This document shows, in pieces, positions 1-20,121 of a stretch of 25,186 nt of DNA. This stretch comes from a virus (lineage: Duplodnaviria; Heunggongvirae; Uroviricota; Caudoviricetes). The first letter of the stretch is position 1. Every line of letters starts with the position of its first letter. Location of the stretch: IMG/VR virus record IMGVR_UViG_3300037587_000312, positions 96,552 to 121,737 of that record; one strand, given 5' to 3'. Under the pieces are notes generated by a model. It saw only the letters and a list, made by a program, of their open reading frames with translations. It was not told the DNA's origin and did not search any database. The position numbers were made by a program, and so were the translations under genes.

Positions 1-231
1 TTCACCTGTTGGTAAGTATCTCACCTCTTTCATTGTCGCGCTCTCGAATTCGACGTGCTTTCTGAGACCAACGTCATAATATCGCTTGGAAATAGTGACA
101 TTTGTTAGAGGATCTGGGTATGCCTCACGAGCCTCCTTAGTAATAACCCCTATCAATGTCTCTTTGCAACCAATACCCTTACCCACACCCTTGCGACCAT
201 CGTGCATTAAATAGAACTTGAAGTTTTTCAT
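1..231 (-). CDS. Hypothetical protein, partial (runs off window start)
   Basis: ATG at 231 overlaps the cca stop (ATGA). Open for 77 codons to the edge: MKNFKFYLMHDGRKGVGKGIGCKETLIG... Not in the ORF track. Confidence 0.6.
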   Translation of the reverse strand, partial: MKNFKFYLMHDGRKGVGKGIGCKETLIGVITKEAREAYPDPLTNVTISKRYYDVGLRKHVEFESATMKEVRYLPTGE

Positions 232-1298
232 TTCAATACCTCCTCAATCCGTTTGATACGTTCTTCGCGCATCTTATCACCAATGTCCTTACCTGTAAAG
301 CCCTGATCAATAAACTGTTGAGCCTTCACTGATTTAGCTGCCTGTAGTGCGTTAGACCACCGCCAAAATAACGAGTGTGAAGTCTCGAAGTCTCTAATGA
401 TAACGTCAAGAACACTGAACAGTTCAAGCAACCTTGATGAGGATTCCTTAACCACATTAATATGAAGAAAGAACTCAAGCATAGTTTCTGGTTTAGTAGC
501 CGTGATAGCACCAATAGCAATACCAAGGTGACTAACAGCCTGCTTAAAGCGTGTAGGTGCCTTTATGGCCTCCCCAAGTGCTTCCCCAGTACCGAAGGGT
601 AGGTTCATACAGAAGATAGCCCACAGGAACTCAGGGGATACTCTCTTATTAACGGCGTTGGTTAGCTCATCCTGAATCTTATGGAAGATAGGTATGTCTA
701 TTGCGGATACCTCTGCAAGGATTCTAAGGAATCGCCAAGGTGCCTGCTCAGACAATGCCTTCTCTGTCTCTTTCCAGATACGCTCTGCTGATATTTTACG
801 TACCTGTGGGATAAGACGGTGCATAGTGTGTGCTGTTGCCCTGTCAATAGTCCACTCATCGCCTAGACGAGCAAGGAAACGAGCCACACGAAGGACACGC
901 AAAGGGTCTTCTTCAAATGCCTCAGATGTTGCACGTAGGATCTTATCCTTAATGTCCTGTTGACCACCAAACGGATCGATGACCTCACTAGTGTGCATAT
1001 CCATAGCCATAGAATTGATTGTAAGATCCCTACGCAGCAGATCCTCTTCAAGGGTGACATCCCTCACATCACACTCAAAATCAGTGTGGGAGCTTCCTGT
1101 AGAGATCTCCTTGCGTGCGAGAGCATACTCATCACCTGTTTCTGGATGAAGGAACACAGGGAAGTCCTTACCTACCTGTGTGAATCCTAGTGAGAGCATT
1201 TCCTCTACGGAAGAACCTACCACCACGAAATCCTTATCTTTAGGCTCTAGGCCAAGGAGGATGTCTCTCACGGCACCTCCCACTAGGAATGTTTTCAT
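228..1298 (-). CDS. cca: Class II tRNA nucleotidyltransferase (CCA-adding enzyme) without HD domain
   Basis: LVGGAVRD..KDKDF (DxD), VGKDFPVFLHP, LARKE plus flexible loop, EEDLLRRDLTINSMA, EDPLRVLRVARF and ERIWKE motifs. No HDxGK motif in the C-terminal half. Confidence 0.95.
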   Translation of the reverse strand: MKTFLVGGAVRDILLGLEPKDKDFVVVGSSVEEMLSLGFTQVGKDFPVFLHPETGDEYALARKEISTGSSHTDFECDVRDVTLEEDLLRRDLTINSMAMDMHTSEVIDPFGGQQDIKDKILRATSEAFEEDPLRVLRVARFLARLGDEWTIDRATAHTMHRLIPQVRKISAERIWKETEKALSEQAPWRFLRILAEVSAIDIPIFHKIQDELTNAVNKRVSPEFLWAIFCMNLPFGTGEALGEAIKAPTRFKQAVSHLGIAIGAITATKPETMLEFFLHINVVKESSSRLLELFSVLDVIIRDFETSHSLFWRWSNALQAAKSVKAQQFIDQGFTGKDIGDKMREERIKRIEEVLK

Positions 1299-3301: not shown

Positions 3302-3523
3302 TTAGACCTCCCTAACCACGTAAGTAAAGATAATATCCTGATGGTAGGAAAGACCTTCGTGAGTCCACTCCTCATTACCATCATCGTCGTGTCTTACGTA
3401 ACGTTCCAAGTAACCCTCTACCCACTTATAGGTCTCAGACCAGAGCCTTCCACGATACTCCCAGTAAGCAATAAATTGTCCTTCAGTTGGACGGGTCTTT
3501 GTTACTCTCATATTATTCTCCAT
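3302..3523 (-). CDS. Hypothetical protein
   Basis: 73 aa ORF overlapping the radical SAM stop. Confidence 0.6.
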   Translation of the reverse strand: MENNMRVTKTRPTEGQFIAYWEYRGRLWSETYKWVEGYLERYVRHDDDGNEEWTHEGLSYHQDIIFTYVVREV

Positions 3524-4502
3524 AGATAGTCTTCACAGCTTTGTTGTTATAATCACGACAAACATCTAAGCAGTTACCTTTGCAGATAGGGTCACAGTGT
3601 GTGTCATGAGTCTTATCCCAAGCAATACGTTCTTCCCGCATGTTTGGACCAACCTCACCAATGGGTGTTCCTTGCTCTCGCATATAGATTACACAAGGGT
3701 AATGCTCTTGTCCAGCGATCACAGAATCATCATAGACCAGAGGACATTTGGTTGTGTCACCTTCATCCAACCCACGGACAGTTTTACCTTCCATGAAATT
3801 CTGGATACGGTACGCTAGAATCGGATGCTGAGCCAAAAGATCCTTATCAACTGCACTCAGTTCTGGAAGAGCCTGATTCCATTGTGCAGAAGGAATAACT
3901 CGGATATCACTTACACCTAGTCCGTTAGCGAATTCAACAATCTTCATGAATCCTTCAATATTCTCAGGAGTGAATACAACACCAACAGTAACATAAGTCA
4001 ATTGGGAGATGATACGGATATTCCGCACAACTTTATCCCAAGCACCCATGATATTACCAGCCATCATATCGCCCGTGGCCGCATCAGCTGCATCCAGTGA
4101 GATAGAGAAGTCATTACAGCCAGCCTCAACTAGTCGCTCATATAATTCTGTCTTGTTGGAACCATTTGTGGAGATAGCAATACGCTCGATACCTTTTGAC
4201 TTGGCATAGGCGACAATCTCAACAATATTCTTATGGTAAGTTGGCTCTCCACCAGAGAATCGGATATTTTTCAGAGGTTGACCCTCACACCAGTAATCAA
4301 TATTGCGCTTGATCTCTTCCAAGGTCAATTCCTTACGCTTACGATCACCGAATACACGGTCGGTAAGTCCACGGCAATACTCACACTTGAAATTGCAGTA
4401 GTCGTTGATGATCATCTCACAACGCTTCATCTGAGAGTCCATAGATACGTTCTCAGCCCGAGAATCTGTCAATGTGTAAAATCCGATATCTTCCAGTTTC
4501 AT
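3513..4502 (-). CDS. Radical SAM enzyme with Cys-rich C-terminal (Twitch/SPASM-like) domain
   Basis: CNFKCEYC (CxxxCxxC), FSGGEP, ISTNGS, SISLD, plus six further Cys in the C-terminal 80 aa. AGGAG RBS. Confidence 0.9.
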   Translation of the reverse strand: MKLEDIGFYTLTDSRAENVSMDSQMKRCEMIINDYCNFKCEYCRGLTDRVFGDRKRKELTLEEIKRNIDYWCEGQPLKNIRFSGGEPTYHKNIVEIVAYAKSKGIERIAISTNGSNKTELYERLVEAGCNDFSISLDAADAATGDMMAGNIMGAWDKVVRNIRIISQLTYVTVGVVFTPENIEGFMKIVEFANGLGVSDIRVIPSAQWNQALPELSAVDKDLLAQHPILAYRIQNFMEGKTVRGLDEGDTTKCPLVYDDSVIAGQEHYPCVIYMREQGTPIGEVGPNMREERIAWDKTHDTHCDPICKGNCLDVCRDYNNKAVKTIYGE

Positions 4503-4515
4503 TTTATTTCTCCTC

Positions 4516-5271
4516 TTAATTTGGATAGGGTATAACTACCCAATTCATAAGTGTATTGTAGACTTCGATAGAGATCTCTCCCTTATTATAACAATCTTTG
4601 GCAACAGTCTTGATATATTTTTCTTTAACCTTTTTATAGGCAGCGAATGCCTGTTCGGGAGAGCTATATGTACCTATGTAGTTTTGGCCCCCACCTTCCC
4701 CTACTTTCGCCTTAAACTTGTTCCTAGACTCAGACACACCTACAGGGTATTTACCCCTAGCCTTATTCCTGCTGGAAAGAAGTGCGTTAATCCGATGGGG
4801 TATGAATTCGCAGGTCGCTTCAGAATACACCATTGAACCCGGCTGGCGCAAATCCTTATCAACGTGAAAACCCTCGATATAATTATCCTCGTACCACCTA
4901 GCATATATCTGAAAATTGTACCATTCCTCACAAACCGTAACACCTCTGCCACCGTAGCGGTGATAGCGGTCATCAGTAATATCGTAACATCTTTCTAGCA
5001 TTCTTTTCCAAACAGCATACGCAGGTTTTTTCTTACAATCAATACTACTGGTGTAAATACCCTCCCCAAAATACCCCACTCCCTGTATGGAGGGTACATA
5101 AGGGTCTTTCACCCCACCTTTACGGAGGCTTCCTGCACCTGTCACGGTTACATACCCTGTATTGGTGAATTCAACGACCACTTTGTAACTATCTATATAC
5201 TCAAGAACCCTACAATCACCATAATTATTAGTTTCAAAAACATCTCCAATCTTAATCCGTAATTTAACCAT
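4516..5271 (-). mobile_element. Free-standing HNH-type homing endonuclease with C-terminal AP2-like domain
   Basis: W..MLERCY..YHRYGGRGVTVCEEW..F, VDKD..YS..TCEFIP..IN, and C-terminal GVS..KFKAKV..YIGTYSSPEQAFAAY. Confidence 0.8.
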
Positions 5272-5990: not shown

Positions 5991-6190
5991 CGTTCAAACA
6001 CCATACTAAGAGATGTTTTGCCCATAGACAAAATACTATAAATCTCCCTATTAAGTGGATATCTCTTGAACTCTCTTTCGAGATGTTCTTGACATTCCTC
6101 CATACTCATTAGAGTAGTATCCTGAACCCAGACCTCCTCCTCTTTTCGGATTACCATTCCGACTTCAATCTCAAAATTAAGCTCCATCAT
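5987..6190 (-). CDS. Hypothetical protein
   Basis: 67 aa ORF with ATGA overlaps on both sides. Confidence 0.6.
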   Translation of the reverse strand: MMELNFEIEVGMVIRKEEEVWVQDTTLMSMEECQEHLEREFKRYPLNREIYSILSMGKTSLSMVFER

Positions 6191-7017
6191 TCAATCTCCG
6201 TAAACATACCACATGATGCTGATTCCTTTTTCCCCTTACTAACCTGCCACTTAATGCCAACACCACCTCGCTGGAATAACTTATAAAGTGTATTCAACTG
6301 AGGGATAGAAGGTCTTTCGTAAACACTTTCAGGGTGTGGATTAAACTCAAGCATCCTGATTGAACAGCCTGTTTCCTTTGCAACTCTTAAGACAGATAGT
6401 GCATCTGTTAGAGAGTCATTCAACCCTTTGATGGGGGTATAATGAATAAACTTATCCCCTTCCCAACAGTTCATCGCAAAAATCTGATTCTCTATATCAC
6501 CGCCACGGGGGATTATAAGATCTCTCTGGAACGGGTTGCCACTGTGGAGAGAATAGAAGATCCGTACAGGTGCATCCTTAATCCGGCGGTTGATTGACCC
6601 AAGTTTACCCTCATCAGGAACAATAGTAGAGATATCTACTTCAATAACCATTAGGTAAGCCGTAATCATGTTCGTTGCTAGGATTGTTTGGGCTGTATCA
6701 ATTAACGGGTCACCCATGCCCATCCAGCACAGCTTGAACCGATCTTTACGAGACACGAATGTACATTCATCAATAGCTTCGTCTACATTAGCCGCTATAT
6801 CTCGAGCACTCAGCTTCTTGAAAGGCATTTCCATTTCAGTCAAGTGGCAGAATACACATTTCTTAGGACAACCCACAGAACTTGAGATGAAGATACTGGT
6901 TACAGTTTCATCCCGCTCACAGTAGTTACCCTGCTCATCGCGGAAAGCTGAGCGTACTTGTTTGATTACAGTTTCAGACCCATCATCATGAATCTTCTTG
7001 AATATTTTGTCGCTCAT
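6187..7017 (-). CDS. RlmN/Cfr-like (class A) radical SAM protein, truncated and atypical
   Basis: ISSSVGCPKKCVFC, WMGMGDPL, YSLHS, Y..IKGLNDS..DA, FNP and C-terminal SASCGM align with RlmN VSSQVGCxxxCxFC, MGMGEP, ISLH, YVML..VND, WNP and AACGQL. Confidence 0.85.
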   Translation of the reverse strand: MSDKIFKKIHDDGSETVIKQVRSAFRDEQGNYCERDETVTSIFISSSVGCPKKCVFCHLTEMEMPFKKLSARDIAANVDEAIDECTFVSRKDRFKLCWMGMGDPLIDTAQTILATNMITAYLMVIEVDISTIVPDEGKLGSINRRIKDAPVRIFYSLHSGNPFQRDLIIPRGGDIENQIFAMNCWEGDKFIHYTPIKGLNDSLTDALSVLRVAKETGCSIRMLEFNPHPESVYERPSIPQLNTLYKLFQRGGVGIKWQVSKGKKESASCGMFTEIE

Positions 7018-7192
7018 ATTCTTCCCCCAGTGATTTGAAATAATTATCAGTACACTCAGTTAACCACCCGTCATTTGCCTTCCAAGTACTCGCGTAAAAT
7101 TCCCTTACTATATCCTCTAAAGAGGGTTCAGGGCCATATTTTTCTTCAGTTACCTGAGGCTCAATTTTCTTCAATCTATTAAGATCCACCAT
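6986..7192 (-). CDS. Hypothetical protein (68 aa)
   Basis: Start revised to the ATG at 7192, within the HNH 3' end. Confidence 0.55.
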   Translation of the reverse strand: MVDLNRLKKIEPQVTEEKYGPEPSLEDIVREFYASTWKANDGWLTECTDNYFKSLGEEYERQNIQEDS

Positions 7193-7823
7193 AAAATTTC
7201 TCCCATTCATATAAATTCTTAAATTTGCTGTAGTATTTCTCCCCGTCTAGGAGCAAATGCCATTTTGTCCAATCTTGTTGGATATTAACACAGGTTTGTT
7301 TGGCTTGCAACACCTCTGCTCTCTGAATAAGCTCTTTGTGGTACTGGTGATTCGGGAACATCTCACAGTAGAGGTAAGCTGTCCCAAAGAAAGGGTCCAG
7401 TTTAGCCTCTTTAAGGATTCGCATACCTCGCTCAACGATAATCTTAGCGTTAGCTCGGCTCACACCCTGTTTGGTTCCCATAAGAGCCTTAAGCCTCCCT
7501 GAATGGATGAAGCTATGACAAGCATGGCAGAGAGGTACTATCTCCTTGATCCTCATGGACCCTTCTTCATAATCTATGGAATAGTCCTCATGAGCCTCTA
7601 GGTGTTGCTTAAAGAGTGCATCATTTTTATGTGTTCCACAAGCCATACAACGGAAATTATTATCTTCATAAGCTTTCTTGCGAGTCTTGTCCCACCAATA
7701 TTTACCCTTAACTTCTCGGGGAGCTAACCCATGTAGAGGTTTAGGTAAATTTGGATGGGTCAACAGTTCCGGCCTAACAATTTTTGGTGGAAGAACTTGA
7801 ATTTTAGGTTTACTTGGTTTCAT
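7179..7823 (-). CDS. HNH endonuclease family protein
   Basis: RCMACG..LEAHE..VPLCHACHSFIH (Zn-coordinated HNH core). Confidence 0.75.
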   Translation of the reverse strand: MKPSKPKIQVLPPKIVRPELLTHPNLPKPLHGLAPREVKGKYWWDKTRKKAYEDNNFRCMACGTHKNDALFKQHLEAHEDYSIDYEEGSMRIKEIVPLCHACHSFIHSGRLKALMGTKQGVSRANAKIIVERGMRILKEAKLDPFFGTAYLYCEMFPNHQYHKELIQRAEVLQAKQTCVNIQQDWTKWHLLLDGEKYYSKFKNLYEWEKFYGGS

Positions 7824-8956
7824 ATATCTCTCTCTTCAAGTTCTTTAATCATTGACTTAATATCCTGTACAGCACGGCTACGCATATGCTTCTTATTCTT
7901 TATTAAGAATGCTGCAAGCATTTCTTTTACAGGGACTAGTTTTACTGATACTAATTTCTCTAGTTGTTTATTATCAAACAGTTGAAAGAAAGCTTTAGTA
8001 ATTGTTATAGGCTTCAAGCCAGCAGCAATCGCCCGACCAGTGATAACTTTGATTTTACCAACATTCCAATCTTTATTGATCGGATAGGCATCCTTCCCAT
8101 ATTTATCATAGAACCGCTTAATAGAACCTTCTGAAATCTCCTTAGATATCTCAGAAGGTTCTGAATCATAGTAGCCGCCACTGGACCCAATGTTCACATA
8201 ATCATTTACATCAGGACATTCCTCCGATGCCAGATCCATGAGCAGTTCATACTCACCGGCTCGGTTGAGAAGTGAAGTAGCTTCATATCCGATAGTGAAA
8301 GCACTGACTGTCTGACGATCACGATCCAGATTTACAATATCAGGCGCAAAGTTGTAGCTGAAGGCATAGTCCTTTCCTCCGACAGGTTCAAGTCTGCAAA
8401 CAAATAATCCACCAACGTACACACTAGGGGTATTATCTTCAAAAGCATAAGATTCCCCGTCATCGGCTACAATACAGAGAGAATCCTTTATAAGGGTACG
8501 GTTTTGTACCGTATCAATATCTTCACGAGACAACCCATGAATAGTAAACCGGACAGTCTCAAATTCATCAGAGAACGCATCATCAGTAATTCCAATAGTC
8601 AGGCACTCAGCCTCTAATTGAGGGTGTGGCTTCATAAAAGGAATCCATCGTTGAGATCCATTCTTGATAGTAACCCCAATATTCTGACGAGCCAATACCA
8701 ACAAGGCTAATTTATAACCCTCTCCGAATTTACCTCTCATATCAGGGTTATCTGCTTTAGATGTATTACCTAATAGGAGGCTATCCTTCTCCATCACACC
8801 TTTGTGACTCTCGATGCTGATACTACCAGTCTCGTAGCTAATATCAACACTATAATCCCCTTGATCCATAGCATTCTGGATGATCTCTCGGATAGCCTCC
8901 CAAGTCCCCCAGTGTGAAATGTAATTCCGAGATAGTGGTAATGCAATGTATTCCAT
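7820..8956 (-). CDS. GHKL (HSP90/gyrase-type) ATPase domain protein
   Basis: AIREIIQNAMD (N box), LLLGNTSK and RGKFGEGYKLALLVL (G boxes). AAGGAG RBS. Confidence 0.8.
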   Translation of the reverse strand: MEYIALPLSRNYISHWGTWEAIREIIQNAMDQGDYSVDISYETGSISIESHKGVMEKDSLLLGNTSKADNPDMRGKFGEGYKLALLVLARQNIGVTIKNGSQRWIPFMKPHPQLEAECLTIGITDDAFSDEFETVRFTIHGLSREDIDTVQNRTLIKDSLCIVADDGESYAFEDNTPSVYVGGLFVCRLEPVGGKDYAFSYNFAPDIVNLDRDRQTVSAFTIGYEATSLLNRAGEYELLMDLASEECPDVNDYVNIGSSGGYYDSEPSEISKEISEGSIKRFYDKYGKDAYPINKDWNVGKIKVITGRAIAAGLKPITITKAFFQLFDNKQLEKLVSVKLVPVKEMLAAFLIKNKKHMRSRAVQDIKSMIKELEERDI

Positions 8957-9044: not shown

Positions 9045-10598
9045 TTATTCTCCTCGTTGTGAGCGCAGGCGAATCTCAGCCCAAGGTGTTTCTCTCACCA
9101 TCTTACTATCTCGGGCGATAATTGCAAGCTCACCAGTAAGAGCCTCCTCCTCAGTCTGGTTCTCCCACAACCGATACTCTGAACCTTCGCGGCTAACCCG
9201 TAGCAGACCACAAGCAGACTTCTTAGCACCTAGTGCAGTCTTAGGATTCTTCTGCATCGAGACACCTTCACCATTAACAATACTGTGTGTACCTTTAATA
9301 GCAATGCTAAATGAGTCACGAGATGCATCCTTAAGGAATCCCCAAGATCCAGTTCCCATCAGCACGTTTGAAACACACCACCCCTGAGAGACCATAGTCT
9401 CATAGATATTCCACTGCATCTGTGGAGTGATTGCCTCTCCATAAATCAGACCAACTTTAGGATTCAGAATCCGCAGACCTTCATCATTAGTGGTTCCACC
9501 GAAAGTATCCCACAACAACCACAATGCACCCTTACGTTCTGCTGCTGATGCACCATCTGGATCACCACAGATAACCTCAAGAGGTGTCTTAGGTGAAGAG
9601 TCAGGACGGAATACAGCCTTACACAGACCAAAAGAGTCAGGTTGACGAGCAAGGATTTCATCCTTAACCATTGGCAGACCTGTCTCCATCAAACCGAAGA
9701 AATCTTCACTGTCAGCTACATAACTGACAATACCTGTTGGGTAGAGATTAGTATAAACATCTCGTAGTGATTCTACTTCAGCCTGAAGAGGGAATTCATT
9801 GTATCCCAAATTCTTCCGGTAGTAAGCAATCCGTTGAGTTGCAGTGGCATGCTCAAAAGCGTTTACACTCACACCGAGACATTCTTTGTCGCTATCCCCG
9901 TTGTAGTACTCTTCAATACCATCAATCGCCCAAAGGGTATCAGTTCCAATACCAAACAACAAGTGAGCCATAGCGGAGATCATTGAATCCTCCTGTCCAC
10001 GGTGCCCACGACCAGCGAAACAGTGATTTGCAATAGCCAACCATTCAGTAGGAGCGCCACATTTCTCTGCCCAGAACTTACTAGTCTTAAAGTACTGCTC
10101 TGTTACAGTTGCAGCGTTAGCCATAGGCCAATACATACAGGATAGAAATGTCTCACAGTAATTGGTTACCCAATAAAACTCTGGAACAGTATTCCGTACA
10201 GTGAAAACAGGGATACCCATATTTACCTTACAGCCTTCCGGCAAAGCGCGAACTTCAACTGGAAGATATTGCAAGTCATGCAAAGCAGCCATAGCTGCGA
10301 TCTGCTCGTCACCGTGATCTGGCCCAAGATAGTTCTTAACTCGACGAGTGAACTTCTTCATAACCTTCTCTTTCGGTAGAGAAAAGAATGTATCTTCCCA
10401 TTGTTGGAATAGGATCTTTGTTACCATCTCAATACCAAAGTTAACCATCTTACCATCATAATGCTCACGCAATACGTTAGCTAGTCGATCACTTCGTGGC
10501 GTGGCATTAGCTGAAACAGATTCAGTGCCGTTGATATACTGGGAAATGTGGCCCAGTTTATAACCATCTACAATTACATTTTGTGGGATATTTTTCAT
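9045..10598 (-). CDS. Nicotinamide phosphoribosyltransferase-like protein (candidate Namat of NARP1)
   Basis: DGYKLGH..QY, TPRS, LHDLQYLP..ALPEG, WVTNYCETFLS, GTDT, EH, FRPDS, GLIYG, RDSFSIAIK, KNPKT..KKSACGLL. Start revised to 10598 (AGGAG RBS). Confidence 0.9.
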   Translation of the reverse strand: MKNIPQNVIVDGYKLGHISQYINGTESVSANATPRSDRLANVLREHYDGKMVNFGIEMVTKILFQQWEDTFFSLPKEKVMKKFTRRVKNYLGPDHGDEQIAAMAALHDLQYLPVEVRALPEGCKVNMGIPVFTVRNTVPEFYWVTNYCETFLSCMYWPMANAATVTEQYFKTSKFWAEKCGAPTEWLAIANHCFAGRGHRGQEDSMISAMAHLLFGIGTDTLWAIDGIEEYYNGDSDKECLGVSVNAFEHATATQRIAYYRKNLGYNEFPLQAEVESLRDVYTNLYPTGIVSYVADSEDFFGLMETGLPMVKDEILARQPDSFGLCKAVFRPDSSPKTPLEVICGDPDGASAAERKGALWLLWDTFGGTTNDEGLRILNPKVGLIYGEAITPQMQWNIYETMVSQGWCVSNVLMGTGSWGFLKDASRDSFSIAIKGTHSIVNGEGVSMQKNPKTALGAKKSACGLLRVSREGSEYRLWENQTEEEALTGELAIIARDSKMVRETPWAEIRLRSQRGE

Positions 10599-10599
10599 T

Positions 10600-10932
10600 T
10601 TATTTCTCCTTCTCATCAGTATTATCTAGTGTAACTCGTAATTCATTCAGCCGTGTATGTACTTCCTTCAATTTACCCTGAAGTATTGCTTTTGCATACT
10701 CCGCAACCTCGAGACCAACATAGCACCCAGACATATCAATACCTTGTCCTGATCCATCACTGTGTTTGTGGACATGACTATAGTATCCGATATTAAAGTT
10801 TTCAAACCCTCCACTGTCAGGACGGTCATTAGTAATTTCATGGATTGTTTTATCAGCCTCTACTAAAGCTTTCTCGAGCCGACTTTTTAATTTGAACAGG
10901 AATTCCACTTCTGCAAAATCACTTTGTAACAT
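10600..10932 (-). CDS. Hypothetical protein between macrodomain and NAMPT-like genes
   Basis: 110 aa. TAATG overlap with the macro stop, and 1 nt from the NAMPT-like start. Helical ends with a Gly/His-rich middle. Confidence 0.7.
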   Translation of the reverse strand: MLQSDFAEVEFLFKLKSRLEKALVEADKTIHEITNDRPDSGGFENFNIGYYSHVHKHSDGSGQGIDMSGCYVGLEVAEYAKAILQGKLKEVHTRLNELRVTLDNTDEKEK

Positions 10933-11459
10933 TAGGTATCTCCTTGGAGTGAATACATACGATCCTTTGCTGGGATCTCGTTTGGTTTCAGTACGTAAAT
11001 AGTAACGTCATACCCTTTGTCTGTCAACTCTTCTTTGATGATATTCTCGATAATATTCCAATCGCCGCCAGCGAGCTTAGACCCTATTTTAGGGAGACCG
11101 ATTGTTGCAGCAGTCTTGAAATTTCCGAAGCCCATTCTCAAGGAGGATCGGAGAGCATCATAATCAAGATCCATCCGCCCTTCTTTTCTACCCCACCAAG
11201 CGTACTGAGAATATAGGTTCAACACATGGATGCCACCCTCTGGATAAAAGGCATGATACCCGTATGAAAATCCTCCGAGTTTCTCTTTATCCCCTTTTAC
11301 AGTCGCTTGGTCTGCCTCCCAAGCTTCAGGGAACTCCTTAGCGATCAAAGGTGCAATACCACTCTTCATTACATTAAAGCAGTTGCATCCATGACCAATG
11401 ACATCAACTTCCCCATCAAGTGCAGCTTGGATCAGGCTCTTTACTTTATACTTTGACAT
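10932..11459 (-). CDS. Macrodomain (ADP-ribose binding/hydrolase) protein
   Basis: VIGHGCNCFNVMKSGIAPLIAKEFP, VLNLYSQY, IGLPKIGSKLAGGDW. Start revised to 11459 (AGGAGG RBS). Confidence 0.9.
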   Translation of the reverse strand: MSKYKVKSLIQAALDGEVDVIGHGCNCFNVMKSGIAPLIAKEFPEAWEADQATVKGDKEKLGGFSYGYHAFYPEGGIHVLNLYSQYAWWGRKEGRMDLDYDALRSSLRMGFGNFKTAATIGLPKIGSKLAGGDWNIIENIIKEELTDKGYDVTIYVLKPNEIPAKDRMYSLQGDT

Positions 11460-12057
11460 ATTTCCTCCTAAACTTATGACCACAATGGGATTTTCTTTTC
11501 CCGTGAACAACAGCCGATACTAATCTAAAATCGAACCCTTTCTCAGCCATTTCTTTGTTCCCATGTAAAGAGTATAGGTAATTCCCCTCCATATCAAGAA
11601 CTTCTACAGGTGACTCATACCTAGCTGAATCTTTTCCTATCTTGATAACCTTAAGGCCAATACTTATGGCATGCGTTTGATTTTCACTATTGGTACACCA
11701 TTCTAGATTAGAGATATAATTATTTTCCTTATCCCCATCGATATGATTAACCTGCTCTTTTCCTTTAGGATTCGCTATGAATGTCTGGGCGACTAACCTG
11801 TGAACCTTCCTTGTAACAGATTTACGGTTTAATCTCAACCTAATCCTCACATAACCATACTTATCCACTTGTGGTGAAAGCATGTGTCCTTTCAAGACCC
11901 TATCAGGCTTATTATCTGAGTATTGAATAACCCTAGTCACAGATCTTACTGACCCATAAGTAGAAACTTCATAGGCTCCTTGGAATTCCTCAATCGGCAA
12001 CCATACCTCAGACTTTGATGTAGTTAACTCTGTCACGCAACTCCTCTGGAACTTCAT
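11446..12057 (-). mobile_element. NUMOD4-HNH free-standing homing endonuclease
   Basis: EVWLPI..YEVSTYGSVRS (NUMOD4) and VHRLVAQTFI..VNHIDGDKENNYISNLEW (HNH). An in-frame GTG at 12036 preceded by GAGGAG is a likelier start. Confidence 0.9.
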
Positions 12058-12856
12058 CTTGGTCTATAAAACAGTTAGCAACATAAAGTTCATCAATTTT
12101 TCCCATTAAGGAATCAAAACCATCAGGAAGAATGGCGTGGGTTACGTATAGAATAACCTTAGCCGCACCTTTCTCCCGAAGCTTGTCTGAAAGGAACATA
12201 AATGTACCCCCTTTGTCAGCAATATCATCTACAATAACACACACCTTACCAGACACATCACCATAAACTTCAGTCCCTGTGATCTTCCCTGTAGCCGCAT
12301 TACGAACTTTATCAGCTCGAACTACCTCACACCCGCCATACATCCAAGCAAGATCGAGAGTCTTCTTATTAGCACCAGCATCGGGTGATACCAGAACTGT
12401 ATTACCATCAAGGATAATATCTGAAAGATCCTGACAGGCGGGAATAATATTCTTTTGTGGACGATTCACACAATTATCCAGAAGAGCAACCCCTACATCG
12501 CTGTGACAGTCCCAGATTTGGACGCTATCAAACTTTAATCCGTTAATGAGGTCAGTGCATACCTTCAAGGCTAACGCCTCACCAGAGGCACATACGCGAT
12601 CCTGACGGGCATACGGAAGATAAGGCATAACAAGGTTAATTACCTTAGGGTTTCGATCACGGCGGATAGCATCTGTCAAAAGTAGCAATGTCATCAGATC
12701 ATCTGAATTACGTACATGGGCTTCGATACGACAAACCTCATTTCCGTAAATAGGTGCTTGTGATACTTTAACCTGTACTTCTCCTCCACTAAAATTAAAA
12801 ATCTTAACGGATGCCTCTTTCTCGTTGAAATATACCTTAAACTTTTCCATTTTCAT
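12008..12856 (-). CDS. Ribose-phosphate pyrophosphokinase-like protein (candidate Adps of NARP1)
   Basis: FSGGEVQVKV, MPYLPYARQDR, DCHS, VSPDAGA, IVDDIADKGGTF, LYVTH. Shorter N-terminus than cellular Prs. Confidence 0.92.
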   Translation of the reverse strand: MKMEKFKVYFNEKEASVKIFNFSGGEVQVKVSQAPIYGNEVCRIEAHVRNSDDLMTLLLLTDAIRRDRNPKVINLVMPYLPYARQDRVCASGEALALKVCTDLINGLKFDSVQIWDCHSDVGVALLDNCVNRPQKNIIPACQDLSDIILDGNTVLVSPDAGANKKTLDLAWMYGGCEVVRADKVRNAATGKITGTEVYGDVSGKVCVIVDDIADKGGTFMFLSDKLREKGAAKVILYVTHAILPDGFDSLMGKIDELYVANCFIDQDEVPEELRDRVNYIKV

Positions 12857-14527: not shown

Positions 14528-14801
14528 GTTTATACCTCACTCTTCCCAATGCGTATCCGATTTCATTAGAGGAATACATCCCCTCCCAGAACCGAACATC
14601 ATGTACCTGTATACCACAGATCTGAGTCCACATCTTTTTAGCTTCAACAATGTAGATATATCCACTAGACCACTCGTGAACATATGGTCCCCATAATTCA
14701 GTAGCATTATATTCCTTGAGGACAGCGGGAAAATCCCGCTCGTCCTCTACTACAACCAGAAGCCTTTGGTCCTTTGGTGGGCTATACTCAGAAATCGACA
14801 T
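14502..14801 (-). CDS. Hypothetical protein
   Basis: 99 aa ORF overlapping the Pnk stop. Confidence 0.55.
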   Translation of the reverse strand: MSISEYSPPKDQRLLVVVEDERDFPAVLKEYNATELWGPYVHEWSSGYIYIVEAKKMWTQICGIQVHDVRFWEGMYSSNEIGYALGRVRYKRDSTNQKD

Positions 14802-15705
14802 AAGGATCTGCTACTTGTATTACATTGACCCCTAGCAACCTCAGGTGATTTGAAACTTGCGGTCTATCATCGACCCAAGCACAGATATTGTACTTCTTCT
14901 CCATCTCCCAAAGCATACGCTCTTTGATGACGAAATCTTTCTCAAAGTTGCCCTCAGGACGGATGTAGAAATCATCATATAGAAGATCACCTGCATCAAG
15001 CCACTTTTTAGTTAGTTCCTCCGCAGAGCCATCACGACCTGTCGCGATAATGATCTCATAATCCTTAACTACGAAACCATCTAACATATCGCAAACTTCA
15101 CGACGATAATGGTCCTGATCAACCTTCATCCAATCAAAAGGTCCACGGTTATGCATTGTAGCGAGTGTTCCATCTACATCGAAGACGATTGCATCAGGGA
15201 GGCTGTCATTTTGGACATACTTACGAGCACCTTTGTACTCAAGCCATTGCTGATACTGACGATAGATAACCAAATGACCTACACCACCAAACCGTTGTGC
15301 ATCACGTTTCCACAGAGTGTTCAGATCAACTTCAAACTCTTTGAATTCTACTGAATAGCCCATTTCTGTCAGTTTCAGTACCATTGCGTTACGGTTCTTA
15401 GGATTAAGATTCGTTTCACAAATGATGATGTTCTGACCATTATCAAAAGCCTCTTGGATCTGACGATCCTGAATAACGGTTACTTTTTCCTCATTCTGAC
15501 GCTTGAATTTATAACGAGTCCAATCTTTTACGCCCTTGTTTTGAAGGATATCAGTGAAACGGATAACATCTCGCTCGATGACTACCCAAGGATTCTTATC
15601 AGTATCAATATCATTTAGTGGTTGGGTCCGAACGAACTCATCAACCCAAGTGTTTTTGCCGCATGCACTGCAGCCGATTGTCATAATTGCTTTTAGTTTA
15701 TTCAT
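14788..15705 (-). CDS. pseT: T4 PseT-like polynucleotide 5'-kinase/3'-phosphatase
   Basis: N-terminal P-loop GCSACGKNTW, ERD..R and ETNL. C-terminal HAD domain with FDVDGTL, TGR, KDFVIK and VDDRPQV. Confidence 0.93.
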   Translation of the reverse strand: MNKLKAIMTIGCSACGKNTWVDEFVRTQPLNDIDTDKNPWVVIERDVIRFTDILQNKGVKDWTRYKFKRQNEEKVTVIQDRQIQEAFDNGQNIIICETNLNPKNRNAMVLKLTEMGYSVEFKEFEVDLNTLWKRDAQRFGGVGHLVIYRQYQQWLEYKGARKYVQNDSLPDAIVFDVDGTLATMHNRGPFDWMKVDQDHYRREVCDMLDGFVVKDYEIIIATGRDGSAEELTKKWLDAGDLLYDDFYIRPEGNFEKDFVIKERMLWEMEKKYNICAWVDDRPQVSNHLRLLGVNVIQVADPYVDF

Positions 15706-15905: not shown

Positions 15906-16225
15906 TATTTTTCCCACTTAGGTTTAAATTCACGTACCGTTTTAGTAACCTTCCTCGCTCCAGATCCATCATGACCTGACCACTCAAACCCATATTTCTC
16001 ATGGTATTTGATCTTACCTCGTAAGGTTACAGGTTCGAAATCTAAATCATGAAATTTCATAGCTAACTCTATCATTCGTAGATAGAGATTATCAGGTGTT
16101 TCCTTATCCACTTTGAGTGTGATACGTCCACTACAAGGATTGATTGTAATTTTATTCCGTTTACTCTCAACCAAAAGAATATCTAGGTGACGATCCTCTT
16201 TAGGACAACATACTTGATTAACCAT
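15905..16225 (-). CDS. Hypothetical basic protein
   Basis: 106 aa ORF with an AAGGGG RBS. Confidence 0.6.
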   Translation of the reverse strand: MVNQVCCPKEDRHLDILLVESKRNKITINPCSGRITLKVDKETPDNLYLRMIELAMKFHDLDFEPVTLRGKIKYHEKYGFEWSGHDGSGARKVTKTVREFKPKWEK

Positions 16226-16227
16226 GA

Positions 16228-16350
16228 TTAATTCCCCTTCATAAAAGTTTTACAGTTACAATTCTTGCAGACTCTGAGAAGACGATTTTTCTTATCGTTT
16301 CTCAGCTCCTGCTTCTTATTTACCGTTAAACAACGATAGCAGATGTACAC
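16228..16350 (-). CDS. Small Zn-finger-like protein (40 aa)
   Basis: Not in the track. GTG start; MYICYRC..VCKNCNCKTF has two CxxC motifs and fills the gap exactly. Confidence 0.55.
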   Translation of the reverse strand: MYICYRCLTVNKKQELRNDKKNRLLRVCKNCNCKTFMKGN

Positions 16351-16354
16351 TTTA

Positions 16355-16696
16355 TCAGCTGGCTCCTTCCAAGTCAACATTATTTATTTCCTCTTGAGCC
16401 TTGAGATAATTATGCCATTTACGCCCATTCCCGAGACCGTAATACCATGCTGGTTCACGTTTTCTCATCCAAGGATAATACCAACCATTCCAAATTTCGG
16501 GGTAGTTATCATACAAATCCCAATCTTCAGCTACAAGGTCAATATCCTTAGGATACCAGCCACCACTCCACCCGCTTCTATACGGGTTATAGCGACTGTC
16601 TTCCACATACCTGACGAACTGTTTTGGTGAATGCCAAGCTATGCGCCTAACAGGGTATCCTGCTATAGCGAGTAACATGGCCTCTTCATAGGTCAT
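16355..16696 (-). CDS. Tad2/DUF2829-like protein with aromatic C-terminal extension
   Basis: MTYEEAM..AGYPVRRIAW..WYPKDIDLVAEDW matches the DUF2829 pattern M.F.EAl..G..V.R..W..W.Ps..D.lA.DW. About 50 extra residues follow. Confidence 0.72.
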   Translation of the reverse strand: MTYEEAMLLAIAGYPVRRIAWHSPKQFVRYVEDSRYNPYRSGWSGGWYPKDIDLVAEDWDLYDNYPEIWNGWYYPWMRKREPAWYYGLGNGRKWHNYLKAQEEINNVDLEGAS

Positions 16697-16920
16697 GAAG
16701 CATCTTCAATGTTTAAATTCATGCAAATGTCATGGTATGCTTTAGAAACGATCTCCAAGTTATCATTTGTCGTTGCTTTGAGACACGCCTCTGCACAAGC
16801 ATGGCGAGTGTCTCTATCCTGAATCTTGAGGAGTAAGCTTAAATCCTTAACATCCTTATCTGTGAAAGTTCCTCCGCGCCACTCGAAGAAATCCAGAGCC
16901 TTTTCTTTCATGGTTTTCAT
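16693..16920 (-). CDS. Hypothetical protein
   Basis: 75 aa ORF with an AAGGGG RBS. Confidence 0.65.
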   Translation of the reverse strand: MKTMKEKALDFFEWRGGTFTDKDVKDLSLLLKIQDRDTRHACAEACLKATTNDNLEIVSKAYHDICMNLNIEDAS

Positions 16921-16969
16921 ATAATCCCCTTAATTCGTTGATCTGTGTCAAGCTTTTAGTCAATACTGG

Positions 16970-16997
16970 TTGCGGTATCGCGAATCTATGATATAAT
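16970..16997 (+). promoter_or_regulatory. Extended -10 sigma70 promoter for the GIY-YIG gene
   Basis: TTGCGG (16970-16975)-N16-TATAAT (16992-16997) with TG at 16989-16990 (TGnTATAAT). Confidence 0.7.
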
Positions 16998-17035
16998 GTC
17001 TAATTGACCTTTTAATTTTATTCCTGAGACTCCTC

Positions 17036-17704
17036 ATGTTCCATATTCTATACCAAACCACAAACCTAGTCAACAATAAACTCTATATTGGTGTTCATTC
17101 TACCGAAGATCTTGGGGATGGTTACCTTGGTTCAGGGGTTCATCTCCAACGTGCTGTGAAGTATTATGGCAGAGAGAACTTTGAACGTCAAGTACTTTGT
17201 TTCACTGATTCTGCCGAAGATGCTTATGAAATTGAGGAGCTTATTGTTGACCTAGAGTTCATATCCCGAAAAGATACTTATAACCTAGCTATTGGTGGTA
17301 TTGGAGGAGTGCCTTCCCAGTTTGTTTCTCAGGAAACTAGACAAAAGATGTCTGAGAGTAAGAAAGAATCCTATCAAGGGGAAAATCATCCGCGTTTTGG
17401 GACTAAACATACCCAAGAAACCAAAGATAGGATTTCCTTAACTAAGACAGGTGTAAAACTTTCAGAGGAGGTCATACAAAAGTTGAGTGAGCGTAATAGC
17501 GGTAGCGGAAACCCTAACTTTTCCGGTTACTGGTATACACCCCAAGGTACGTTCGATTCTTGCCTGAAAGCTGGGAAAGCGAATGGGGTTAACCGAAAAA
17601 CTATAGTTAATCGATGTAAACCAACCGAGCCAATCCAAAGACCCCTGAAGTTACGAGGTAGGGCTTGGAAAGAACTCGGTTGGTGGTTCGAACCTAAGGA
17701 TTAA
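17036..17704 (+). mobile_element. Free-standing GIY-YIG homing endonuclease (Seg-like) with NUMOD3 repeats
   Basis: HILYQTTN..KLYIGVH, YLGSG, YGRENF, YNLAIGG, and repeats SQETRQKMSESK, HTQETKDRIS, SEEVIQKLSE. Confidence 0.92.
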
Positions 17705-19029
17705 GAGGCATCTTCCAAATCCACGTTACTTTCTTTGTAGATGCCCTCTAATACGCGGAAACAATATGACTTACTTTTATAAAACTTAGGTGCCATTTTC
17801 TCACCATCCATTCGGATAACAATACCTTCGCTGATGTGACTTGGGTCAGTGAGATCCTCACACATCACATCTCGACGCTCAGTCAATTCATCAACCAGAG
17901 CAGCCAACTTCTCTTGGTCTCCATCATACACGATATCATCATGCACTCGGAAGGTAGACTCTAGACCACGGTCCTTAGCCCACTTGATAACCTGTGAAGG
18001 TGTCATTTCCCAAACAGTTCCATCCTCAAGTGCCTGAGTCACACGGTAAACGAAGAATCGGTTCTGACCTTCATTACATCCATAAGAATAAGTCATAGTT
18101 TCACCATACTTCTTAGTGAACTTCTTATCCTTCATCACATGAGTCCCATGAACACCCATGATAGGTGATCCATTAGCGAATCCTACGATCTCACCATAGA
18201 CAGTCACACCTTTGTCCATAAAAGGCTTCAGCACATTTAACCAATCAAAACGCCACTGTTCAGGACCATTGAATCCAGCCTTCTGCTCCTGACCTTCAAA
18301 TAGGACTACACGACGAGTACCAGCAACATACTGCCAAGACTTTAGGCTAGGCATACCACCAAAGTTCCACTTAAACTTCTCCCACCAAGACATATTATCA
18401 TAGTTCTTCTCAACCAAAGTGTGGCTGTATCGAGCTGAAGTGCCATGCAGTTTGCTGTGGAATGATAATACAGTTCCAACAGGGATAGTCTGCAAGTAAT
18501 ACTTAAACTGCTCAGTATCAACGTGACGAGCAAACAAAGGAGTTTCAACAGCCTTAAGTTGCTTCTTAGCTTGACCTTGTGCCATGGCATTCTTGGTCTT
18601 CTCAGAGACAAACTTCTGGCAGATCTCCTTACCGTCTAAACTGTCAAACTGGAAGCCTTCTACTAGCTTCTCCGTTGCGTCTTCACTGTGTAGGTAACTT
18701 TTCGCACCGATATAATCAAAGAAACTCAATGGGCAAAAATACCCTTCGCTCTTGACTTTGAGGAACGGTTGTGCTCGAACTCGACGGTTATTATCGAAGA
18801 AACCAGCCTTGGTCTCATCCTTATTCTTTTCTGACTTACGGAATAGGTTATTCTCGTGACAGAATTCTTCACTTAATTGCAGATCAGGTTGGAAAAATAC
18901 TCCGATATCACCCACAACAGTATCCTTGCCCACGATAACCGCTTCACCCAGTACGTAAGCGATGTGGATGCGATCTGCACCCTTAATGTCTTCAGTTCGT
19001 GCTACAACAGCTACGATTGCTTTATGCAT
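17701..19029 (-). CDS. ATP-dependent RNA ligase with N-terminal OB-like domain (Rnl2/DRB0094-type)
   Basis: Motif I KLHGTS, III VYGEIVG, IIIa FFVYRV, IV EGIVIR and V FYKSKS; N-terminal GADRI..GDIGVFF. Start revised to 19029 (TAATG overlap). Confidence 0.88.
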   Translation of the reverse strand: MHKAIVAVVARTEDIKGADRIHIAYVLGEAVIVGKDTVVGDIGVFFQPDLQLSEEFCHENNLFRKSEKNKDETKAGFFDNNRRVRAQPFLKVKSEGYFCPLSFFDYIGAKSYLHSEDATEKLVEGFQFDSLDGKEICQKFVSEKTKNAMAQGQAKKQLKAVETPLFARHVDTEQFKYYLQTIPVGTVLSFHSKLHGTSARYSHTLVEKNYDNMSWWEKFKWNFGGMPSLKSWQYVAGTRRVVLFEGQEQKAGFNGPEQWRFDWLNVLKPFMDKGVTVYGEIVGFANGSPIMGVHGTHVMKDKKFTKKYGETMTYSYGCNEGQNRFFVYRVTQALEDGTVWEMTPSQVIKWAKDRGLESTFRVHDDIVYDGDQEKLAALVDELTERRDVMCEDLTDPSHISEGIVIRMDGEKMAPKFYKSKSYCFRVLEGIYKESNVDLEDAS

Positions 19030-19331
19030 TATGTAATCTCCTCTAATATTCTTAATCGTTGTGCCAATACCCACATACCGCCTTGGGATTCAGGTCGTTT
19101 GTGATACTCAAAATCCTCCACCTCCACCTTGTACCATTTACGATCTTTCTCAGACAGGTGAGGGGCTTCAGGACGGAGAGTACAATGCCATCCCGGCCTA
19201 TGAGCATAACCTTTAGTTGGGATATCCTCAGCATCATACCAAACATTCAGTGACAGTCTCTGTCTACGGTTGATGAACAATGGCCCAATGCTACCGTCTT
19301 TCTTAACACTAAACAGTTTGTATCCTATCAC
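19029..19331 (-). CDS. Hypothetical protein coupled to the RNA ligase
   Basis: 100 aa with GYKLF..RPGWHC..APHL..RPESQGGMW motifs. Confidence 0.7.
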   Translation of the reverse strand: MIGYKLFSVKKDGSIGPLFINRRQRLSLNVWYDAEDIPTKGYAHRPGWHCTLRPEAPHLSEKDRKWYKVEVEDFEYHKRPESQGGMWVLAQRLRILEEIT

Positions 19332-19517
19332 TTATCTACCTCCAAAACAATGAGAATCAACACCCTCATTGAAGCCTTCACTCATACCATGTTGATAACC
19401 TTGGTCGTAACCTTCACTACGACCCTCCTCCAGACCCTCTTGGTAACCTTCATGGTGGCCTTGGTCTAAACCTTGTTGGTGCGCATTGTCTAAATCATCT
19501 TGTGTAAAGTTATTCAT
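19332..19517 (-). CDS. GxxxG-repeat (FliH/Yae1-like) miniprotein
   Basis: Ten Gly residues at exact 4-residue spacing from G16 to G52. Confidence 0.7.
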   Translation of the reverse strand: MNNFTQDDLDNAHQQGLDQGHHEGYQEGLEEGRSEGYDQGYQHGMSEGFNEGVDSHCFGGR

Positions 19518-19798
19518 TTCTTATCCCCCATCCTCTTCAATTTACGTAACCACTTACTTTTCTCTGCTGTAAGTGAATCAATAGATGTTTTCATTCGGAT
19601 CATTTGATGCTGGGAGTCTTCCAGTTCATGAAGAGCATTCCTGAGATCTTTTTTAAGGATAGTGATCTCACGCCCATCCTGATTACGTTTCTGTTTGGAT
19701 TCTCTACTCAGCCTCTTTGATCTTTGGATTTTTACCTTCGCTTGGTCCAAACCCCGCCGGTATGCATTATCTAGATCCTCTTGTGTAAAGTCATTCAT
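19460..19798 (-). repeat. Imperfect 58-bp direct repeat (19460-19517 and 19741-19798) encoding the N-termini of two adjacent genes
   Basis: 47/58 nt identical by manual alignment; MNNFTQDDLDNAHQQGLDQ vs MNDFTQEDLDNAYRRGLDQ. Confidence 0.9.
19514..19798 (-). CDS. Basic coiled-coil protein (94 aa)
   Basis: Start revised to 19798 (AAGGGG RBS). The GTG start in the track overlaps the promoter -10 box. Confidence 0.7.
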   Translation of the reverse strand: MNDFTQEDLDNAYRRGLDQAKVKIQRSKRLSRESKQKRNQDGREITILKKDLRNALHELEDSQHQMIRMKTSIDSLTAEKSKWLRKLKRMGDKK

Positions 19799-19840
19799 AA
19801 TCTTCCCCTTAAACGTAAAACCCTCGATTTCATGTACGTA

Positions 19841-19869
19841 AGAGTACACTTCCTCGAGGGTTCTGTCAA
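19841..19869 (-). promoter_or_regulatory. Sigma70-like promoter embedded in an inverted repeat
   Basis: TTGACA (19869-19864)-N17-TACTCT (19846-19841) in the intergenic gap. Confidence 0.7.
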
Positions 19870-19878
19870 GCTTTAATT

Positions 19879-20121
19879 TTAAACATTTTCTGGTACATCA
19901 GGCACTTTCTTGTTGGGCCAAGCCTTGATAAGTTTCAGATGTTGTGACATCCGCTCAGCCACACCAAATGCGCCGCTCTCCTTACAACGAAGAATGTAAA
20001 ACTCTATAACCTCCTCCGTTAAGCAGTCTTGTCCTCGAAAAAGGACAACCGGCTCATCAATCGGGATTAACTCCAATCGATCCTGTACTCTTGCCGTGTA
20101 GTCACCTCTTGCGTGAATCAT
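19879..20121 (-). CDS. Small hypothetical protein with IPxDEPVxLFRxQD motif
   Basis: 80 aa; AGGAG RBS. Confidence 0.7.
   Translation of the reverse strand: MIHARGDYTARVQDRLELIPIDEPVVLFRGQDCLTEEVIEFYILRCKESGAFGVAERMSQHLKLIKAWPNKKVPDVPENV

Follow-up and report, generated by a model that had tools for sequence, protein, structure and literature searches.

What does a radical S-adenosylmethionine (SAM) enzyme of the RlmN/Cfr type do without one of its two catalytic cysteines? The question is raised by a gene in the virus record IMGVR_UViG_3300037587_000312 (Caudoviricetes). The window analysed here is a stretch of 25,186 nucleotides (positions 96,552 to 121,737), the last 25 kb of this 121,737-bp record, and the gene encodes the protein P0001. 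The published mechanism of class A methylases requires two cysteines, one carrying the methyl group and the other releasing the product, and removal of the second cysteine is the usual laboratory means of trapping enzyme-RNA cross-links. P0001 retains the methyl-carrier cysteine and has phenylalanine at the site of the releasing one. Since phenylalanine is incapable of proton abstraction, P0001 would have to finish the reaction in a different way or act on another target. The P0001 family is a large, mostly viral sister clade of the class A methylases RlmN and Cfr. With moderate confidence, P0001 is predicted to be an active, mostly viral class A variant with non-thiol release of the product and/or a non-canonical adenine-nucleotide target.

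The second cysteine of RlmN and Cfr abstracts the C2/C8 proton of the cross-linked intermediate and thus triggers C-S fragmentation, and the mutants RlmN C118A/S and Cfr C105A/S stall as protein-RNA cross-links (PMC9692996; bioRxiv 10.64898/2026.02.27.707579). These two enzymes are the nearest solved relatives of P0001. The sequence matches among solved structures (phmmer) are limited to RlmN and Cfr, with E-values of 2e-14 for 6fz6, 4e-12 for E. coli RlmN and 2e-5 for Cfr 9p0p. The AlphaFold2 model of P0001, built from 64 homologues (predicted local distance difference test, pLDDT, 93.9; predicted template modelling score, pTM, 0.91), has the RlmN-type fold, that is, a partial barrel, a beta' extension and a C-terminal loop. 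In a Foldseek search with this model the RlmN chains occupy ranks 1-10 and Cfr rank 11; the match to 6fz6 has an E-value of 2e-17 and a TM score of 0.73, and 5hr7 is also among the best PDB matches. Pfam finds the generic Radical_SAM domain alone (33.8 bits). The best NCBIfam model is RlmN TIGR00048 with 74 bits, below its cut-off of 290, and the Cfr models score 30-34 bits versus cut-offs of 468-550 (33.5 versus 550 for the Cfr equivalog TIGR04432). The PHROG assignment is phrog_27142, "Fe-S-cluster redox domain-containing". A literature search gave neither a characterised member of the family nor a description of a single-Cys class A enzyme or of an RlmN-like enzyme from a phage, and a nucleotide search of cultured phages gave no match.

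RlmN (E. coli YfgB, the 23S rRNA m2A2503 and tRNA m2A37 synthase; 3RFA, 5HR7, 6FZ6) is the best match both in sequence and in fold. Like RlmN, P0001 has the CX3CX2C, MGMG(E/D)P, SLH, N-D and NP motifs and the G-x6-C loop with the methyl-carrier cysteine. Unlike RlmN, it has phenylalanine for C118, lacks about 87 N-terminal residues, carries an insertion of about 12 amino acids in the beta' hairpin, and has K95, D128, R152, F154 and R221 in place of N172, T209, A229, A231 and N307. With Cfr (the 23S rRNA m8A2503 methyltransferase; 9P0P) it shares the cluster motif, C269 (C338 in Cfr), S41 (S103 in Cfr) and the length of the C-terminal loop, whereas C105 is replaced by phenylalanine, five contact residues are replaced and the N-terminal domain is missing.

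The initial annotation of this DNA had described an RlmN/Cfr-like radical SAM enzyme that keeps the methyl-carrier cysteine and lacks the resolving one, and the alignments bear this out. Against solved chains (phmmer), Cys269 pairs with RlmN C355, and Phe43 pairs with C118 (TTVCVSCQVGC of 6fz6) and with the alanine of the C118A variants 4pl1 and 5hr6. In the MAFFT alignment the column of Phe43 contains the cysteine of the two RlmN outgroup sequences and that of the two viral groups with both cysteines. All coordinates given in that annotation are correct, as read directly from the codons, and so is the replacement of MGMGEP by MGMGDP (residues 99-104). The absence of the N-terminal RlmN domain, put there at about 90 amino acids, also stands: P0001 begins at about residue 88 of RlmN and has no HhH2 RNA-docking domain and no RlmN_N match, and the figure of about 87 absent residues takes K7 as RlmN K94, counted by hand along the K. 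pneumoniae RlmN. An insertion of about 15 amino acids with a cysteine, directly after the ETV motif, was only partly recovered. The stretch from K7 to F43 comprises 36 residues in P0001 versus 24 in RlmN, a net insertion of about 12 amino acids, and the cysteine (Cys33) is present, but its position directly after ETV depends on the alignment: in hhalign and in the profile-to-Cfr alignment SETVIK falls on the first beta' strand, whereas MAFFT, in agreement with the initial annotation, pairs E15 with the glutamate of ETV. The positions are collected in Table 1.

Table 1. Features of the P0001 gene and of other genes in the window (coordinates from the first nucleotide of the window)
Feature	Position	Strand	Remark
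Single-Cys RlmN/Cfr-like radical SAM gene (P0001, 276 aa)	6187..7017	-	ORF and translation
Shine-Dalgarno-like GGGGGAAG of the P0001 gene	7021-7028	-	3 nt to ATG; read directly
Clade-specific N-terminal motif K7-x2-H10-D-D-G-S-E15-T16-x2-K19	6961..6999	-	
Cys33 (TGT), the "inserted Cys"	6919-6921	-	not conserved
Phe43 (TTC), in SIFISSSVGC	6889-6891	-	at the RlmN C118 / Cfr C105 site; alignments
CX3CX2C [4Fe-4S]/SAM cluster motif C50, C54, C57	6847..6870	-	invariant in all alignments
Beta2 strand and SAM motif K95-L-C97-W-M-G-M-G-D-P104	6706..6735	-	profile-to-Cfr alignment
Cys97	6727-6729	-	aligned with Cfr S153
Asp128, candidate acid/base	6634..6636	-	putative role; RlmN has Thr
R152-I-F154 on beta4	6556..6564	-	aligned with Cfr N208 and T210
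Arg221	6355..6357	-	aligned with Cfr N288
C-terminal loop G262-x6-C269	6211..6234	-	C269, G262, G270 invariant
Cys269 (TGT), methyl carrier, in SASCGMF	6211-6213	-	RlmN C355 / Cfr C338
Nampt/Namat-like gene	9045-10616	-	NARP1-like set
Macro-domain open reading frame (ORF)	10932-11510	-	NARP1-like set
PRPP-synthetase-like (Adps-like) gene	12008-12856	-	NARP1-like set
CCA-adding enzyme gene	228-1298		tRNA supply/repair
PNKP gene	14788-15705		tRNA supply/repair
RNA ligase gene	17701-19074		tRNA supply/repair

The absence of the cysteine is a property of the family, neither decay nor a sequencing error, because the same state is seen family-wide together with invariant catalytic motifs. At the site seven residues before the first cluster cysteine, 227 homologues have F (183), V (16), Y (8), I (7), C (7), M (3), L (2) and S (1). 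Thus 220 of the 227 scorable proteins lack a cysteine there, which answers the question of the initial annotation whether the loss of C118 is family-wide. The seven sequences with cysteine all lie in the lower third of the match list (E-values 8e-50 to 2e-30). In a word-indexed search that gave 110 homologues, every scorable one has F, V, I or M at the site, and the CG motif is kept in every one that reaches the C terminus. A profile search of 1.84 billion representatives gave 145 clusters (50% identity) at E<=1e-30. A decayed gene or an error at codon 43 would account for the missing cysteine and for nothing else. More than 200 homologues, with identities as low as about 30%, share this state, and close homologues that keep the cysteine, which would have spoken for isolate-specific decay, were not found: close and distant ones alike are without it. 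The ORF is uninterrupted and follows a ribosome-binding site; its stop codon overlaps the start of the next ORF in ATGA, which couples the translation of the two genes. The probability of decay or error is practically negligible.

A maximum likelihood tree of 148 sequences was built by a quick IQ-TREE run (LG+C20 with posterior mean site frequencies, PMSF) and rooted with two bacterial RlmN proteins. The 116 Phe-type proteins are monophyletic, with a value of 99 in the Shimodaira-Hasegawa-like approximate likelihood ratio test (SH-aLRT), and their sister is the two-Cys protein P0205. A clade of jumbo-phage proteins (Phabio, CcrPW and relatives) has tyrosine at the site and is sister to a short two-Cys clade, and the large two-Cys phage family forms a separate branch. 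Three state changes at the cysteine site are needed by this tree, whose deep branches are weakly supported and whose outgroup consists of two sequences only; at least two changes are forced by well-supported branches. In an approximately unbiased (AU) test on a 52-sequence subset (LG+G4), the tree uniting all proteins without the cysteine was rejected (log-likelihood difference 62.5, p = 0.0013); the tested grouping was chosen after the first tree had been seen. Viral RlmN-like proteins have therefore lost the cysteine, or lost it and regained it, on more than one occasion. The tyrosine type of the jumbo phages, whose clade stands apart and has a two-Cys clade as its sister, likewise indicates an independent replacement of the cysteine.

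Two other cysteines of P0001 were considered as substitutes. The initial annotation had proposed the inserted Cys33 as a resolving residue. In the 11 closest homologues (45-65% identity) the residues at this position are C, K, Q, Q, V, H, K, C, H, V, V, so that cysteine occurs in P0001 and P0008 only (2 of 11), and across the wider clade the column is variable or gapped. Cys33 is not conserved and is therefore not a conserved resolving residue; this proposal was rejected. Cys97, which corresponds to the active-site residue S153 of Cfr, was rejected as a general substitute, as the Phe clade splits into 56 proteins with cysteine and 55 with serine at this position. All 11 close homologues have cysteine there.

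The homologues of P0001 reside on phage-like contigs of 17-543 kb, and the Atlas clusters of the family are 67-89% viral. A scan of prokaryotic genomes, one per species (185,579 species), gave at least one locus, on a 197-kb contig of a metagenome-assembled genome. The best match among cultured phages is a protein of Klebsiella phage 05F01 (30% identity), with valine at the site and the N-terminal motif HNNGTET. The tyrosine type is carried by the cultured jumbo phages Pseudomonas phage Phabio (PHABIO_444) and Caulobacter phage CcrPW (gp289). The jumbo-phage proteins (PHROG 27142; Phabio, CcrPW, 201phi2-1) resemble P0001 in being viral and short, with the methyl-carrier cysteine and without a cysteine at the C118 site. 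They differ in the tyrosine, the absence of the HDDGSET motif, an identity of about 24% and their placement in a separate clade.

The genome of the window also encodes a two-Cys paralogue, P0248 (G000:66304-67143, plus strand, locus L011:1477-2397, 306 aa), which scores 120.9 bits with TIGR00048 and has both cysteines, in TVICCSTQSGC and GGGCGQLW. It is 27% identical to P0001 over 161 aligned residues. The two-Cys phage family to which it belongs (PHROG 24834) is, like P0001, short, phage-encoded, devoid of the N-terminal domain and present in the same genome; unlike P0001, it has both cysteines and forms a separate clade. P0248 lies between genes for an HD-type protein and a YqeY-like protein, and four tRNA genes are found about 1.7-2.6 kb downstream. 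Elsewhere the single-Cys gene occurs alone, with no two-Cys form: this is so in four other phage records (05F01, Phabio and two of 363 kb and 543 kb), and thus the single-Cys enzyme is independent of the two-Cys one. The functional distinctness of P0001 is backed both by the paralogue in its own genome and by these four records.

The Cfr residues in contact with A2503 and the adjacent nucleotide in the cryo-EM structure of the Cfr-rRNA cross-link (bioRxiv 10.64898/2026.02.27.707579) were mapped onto P0001 via the profile-to-Cfr alignment, and their frequencies were taken from the 116 sequences of the Phe clade. In Cfr, S153 forms a hydrogen bond with the ribose of the target nucleotide, N288 binds its phosphate, and N208 and T210 touch the 3'-neighbour base; in both RlmN and Cfr the C-terminal loop carries the methyl group, and its backbone atoms bind N1 and N6 of the adenine (bioRxiv 10.64898/2026.02.27.707579). 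The sequence of this loop, [AS][AS]CG[QM]F, is conserved with RlmN and Cfr, and the length of the adenine-reading loop is unchanged (G262-C269 versus Cfr G331-C338, spacing 7). Cfr S103 is also kept (S41; S/T in 90 of 116). At the remaining positions P0001 has F43 for Cfr C105 (F in 90, V in 15, I in 5 and M in 3 proteins), K95 for S151 (114 of 116), C97 for S153 (with the split between cysteine and serine given above), R152 for N208 (112), F154 for T210 (113), R221 for N288 (all 116) and Q258 for R327 (115). The invariant residues of the Phe clade include C50, C54, C57, C269, D128, R221, K19 and S260. Three of them, D128, K19 and S260 (each 116 of 116), are clade-specific, and D128 is absent from other groups. 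The N-terminal motif contains, besides K19, conserved E15 (111 of 116), T16 (110) and H10 (109); H10, T16 and K19 are not common to RlmN or the two-Cys groups.

It appears from these substitutions that the adenine-binding and methyl-carrier parts have been kept, and that the pocket for the sugar-phosphate and the 3' neighbour has been remodelled, three cationic residues and an acidic one having been introduced. Given K95, R152, F154 and R221 in this pocket, the substrate is probably presented differently from A2503 or A37. The remodelled pocket (K95, D128, R152, F154, R221) favours a non-canonical substrate, one of the options of the initial annotation, and/or a non-thiol base, and E15 and D128 are candidate bases. 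A radical SAM enzyme that does not methylate at all, with Cys269 serving as a hydrogen-atom donor or as a ligand in other radical chemistry, would agree with the rebuilt pocket, with NCBIfam scores far under every RlmN and Cfr cut-off and with the lack of a characterised family member in the literature search. However, it would leave a C-terminal loop conserved with RlmN and Cfr both in sequence and in length, and we regard it as quite improbable.

Under the favoured reading, that of an active methylase with another release or another target, the reaction would begin as in the known enzymes. One SAM would methylate Cys269, and a second SAM would yield the 5'-deoxyadenosyl radical that makes a methylene radical out of the S-methyl group. 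With an adenine-type ring bound in the conserved loop, the methylene radical would add to one of its sp2 carbons. The adduct would then be released by another base, the candidates being Glu15 and Asp128, or the target would make the release step needless. Candidate substrates are a site in a phage or host tRNA or other RNA, or a free adenine nucleotide related to NAD or ADP-ribose.

The same chemistry could stop one step earlier, as the initial annotation had also considered. P0001 would then halt at the Cys269-CH2-adenine adduct, and every molecule would stay permanently bound to a single RNA or nucleotide, from the host or from a defence system, acting as an inhibitor or a tag. Engineered loss of the same cysteine in RlmN and Cfr yields exactly this stalled adduct (PMC9692996; bioRxiv 10.64898/2026.02.27.707579), no acid-base function exists at position 43 clade-wide, and the loss of the cysteine is recurrent in separate viral lineages. 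On the other hand, such a mechanism would consume one Fe-S protein for every target molecule. That phenylalanine is so strongly preferred (183 of 227), and tyrosine in the second clade, speaks for a specific role of the site and not just for the absence of a thiol, the invariant acidic residues E15 and D128 are available as alternative bases, and no conserved partner or target gene lies alongside in 28 loci. Such a suicide cross-linker, the most striking of the alternatives, is considered improbable.

The family comprises at least 145 clusters (50% identity), almost all viral, which are strongly constrained and yet lack the release cysteine, and a second viral clade has tyrosine in its place. 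This would imply either a natural alternative to the accepted release step or deliberate use of stalled chemistry by phages. If true, either outcome would extend a well-studied enzyme class by a novel type of reaction or by a novel interaction of phage and host. A broader scenario, which we think possible and rather doubtful, is that phages have repeatedly evolved class A enzymes without the release cysteine, either as single-use traps of host or defence RNA or nucleotides, or for C-methylation of free adenine of the NAD/ADP-ribose type as a counter-defence. In the latter case the target would be an immune signal or an intermediate of an NAD+ pathway, and K95, R152 and R221 would bind its phosphates.

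Genes of NAD metabolism do occur around the single-Cys gene. Upstream of P0001, at a distance of 2-5 kb and in the same direction, lies a set of genes for NAD+ reconstitution (9045-12856), in which the succession of phosphoribosyl pyrophosphate (PRPP) synthetase-like, macro-domain and Nampt-like genes resembles NARP1 (bioRxiv 10.1101/2024.02.11.579819). Genes related to NAD or ADP-ribose are found less than 8 kb from the single-Cys gene in the lineage of the window and in L029, L002, L035, L032 and L007. In 9 of 10 IMG/VR records the distance from the nicotinate phosphoribosyltransferase (NAPRTase) gene to the single-Cys gene is 15-245 kb. Among the seven NAPRTase-positive control records, three (L069, L064 and L099, from G023, G014 and G017) have the two-Cys gene within about 3 kb of the NAPRTase gene. 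Thus, proximity to NAD genes is not peculiar to the single-Cys clade.

Several points weigh against the favoured reading of P0001 as an active enzyme with non-thiol release and/or a non-canonical target. Turnover without the second cysteine is an assumption, since C118A/S and C105A/S stall. The placement of E15 and D128 relative to Phe43 comes from strand register and alignment only, and the N-terminal alignment of P0001 differs by method. There is no conserved neighbour across 28 loci (ORFs within 6 kb on either side, all-against-all clustering), synteny being lineage-specific only, and the gene context thus points to no substrate. Finally, all 14 large single-Cys records, that of the window included, have NAPRTase, versus 7 of 10 size-matched two-Cys records, a difference for which Fisher's test, calculated by hand, gives about 0.06 and in which the control records may also hold a single-Cys gene. 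Because NAPRTase is also present in these 7 control records, the NAD link of the single-Cys gene is not specific and is treated as a lead.

The link to tRNA is also a lead. The genome has 22 tRNA genes (16151-20014 and 68828-69714 of the whole record), all with an encoded CCA end, which together with the RNA ligase, PNKP and CCA-adding enzyme amounts to a large commitment of the phage to supplying and repairing tRNAs. In one other phage lineage a YqeY-like gene is located directly upstream of the single-Cys gene (L013:4481-4903, L016-L019, L027); the Pfam score of the encoded protein, 25.6 bits, is slightly below the cut-off. In the genome of the window the YqeY-like gene adjoins the two-Cys paralogue P0248 instead.

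These genes bear on the simplest alternative, that P0001 is an ordinary RNA C-methylase which makes m2A or m8A in tRNA (of the position 37 type) or rRNA, uses another residue or solvent as the base, and serves the phage tRNAs. The tRNA set includes Arg, Asp, Gln, Glu and His species with A after the anticodon, the repair enzymes and the YqeY-like neighbour of the other lineage would fit, and P0001 keeps every class A motif except the base cysteine. However, it lacks the HhH2 domain, by which tRNA or rRNA is docked, the five positions that contact the backbone or the 3' neighbour in Cfr and RlmN carry other, invariant residues, and a two-Cys paralogue beside a YqeY-like gene is already present in the genome. 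The median isoelectric point of the clade, about 7 versus about 8.3 for two RlmN sequences, is a weak point in the same direction; as a sign of RNA binding it was set aside as uninformative. On balance this alternative is improbable.

The immediate neighbours of P0001 are HNH endonucleases and small ORFs without a family match. Two HNH endonuclease genes flank it, at 7179-7823 (minus strand, phrog_5200) and 4516-5271 (minus strand, phrog_953); they are probably mobile insertions that interrupted the gene order found in L006 and L046. Between the Namat-like gene and P0001, a gene at 7820-8956 (minus strand) encodes a 378-aa phrog_6077 protein with a weak GHKL/HATPase_c_3-like (sacsin-like) N terminus. 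The window also contains an NrdJ gene and, at 3513-4502 (minus strand), a gene for a second radical SAM protein of 329 aa, for which MoaA and SPASM/twitch-type maturases are the best NCBIfam models, all far below cut-off.

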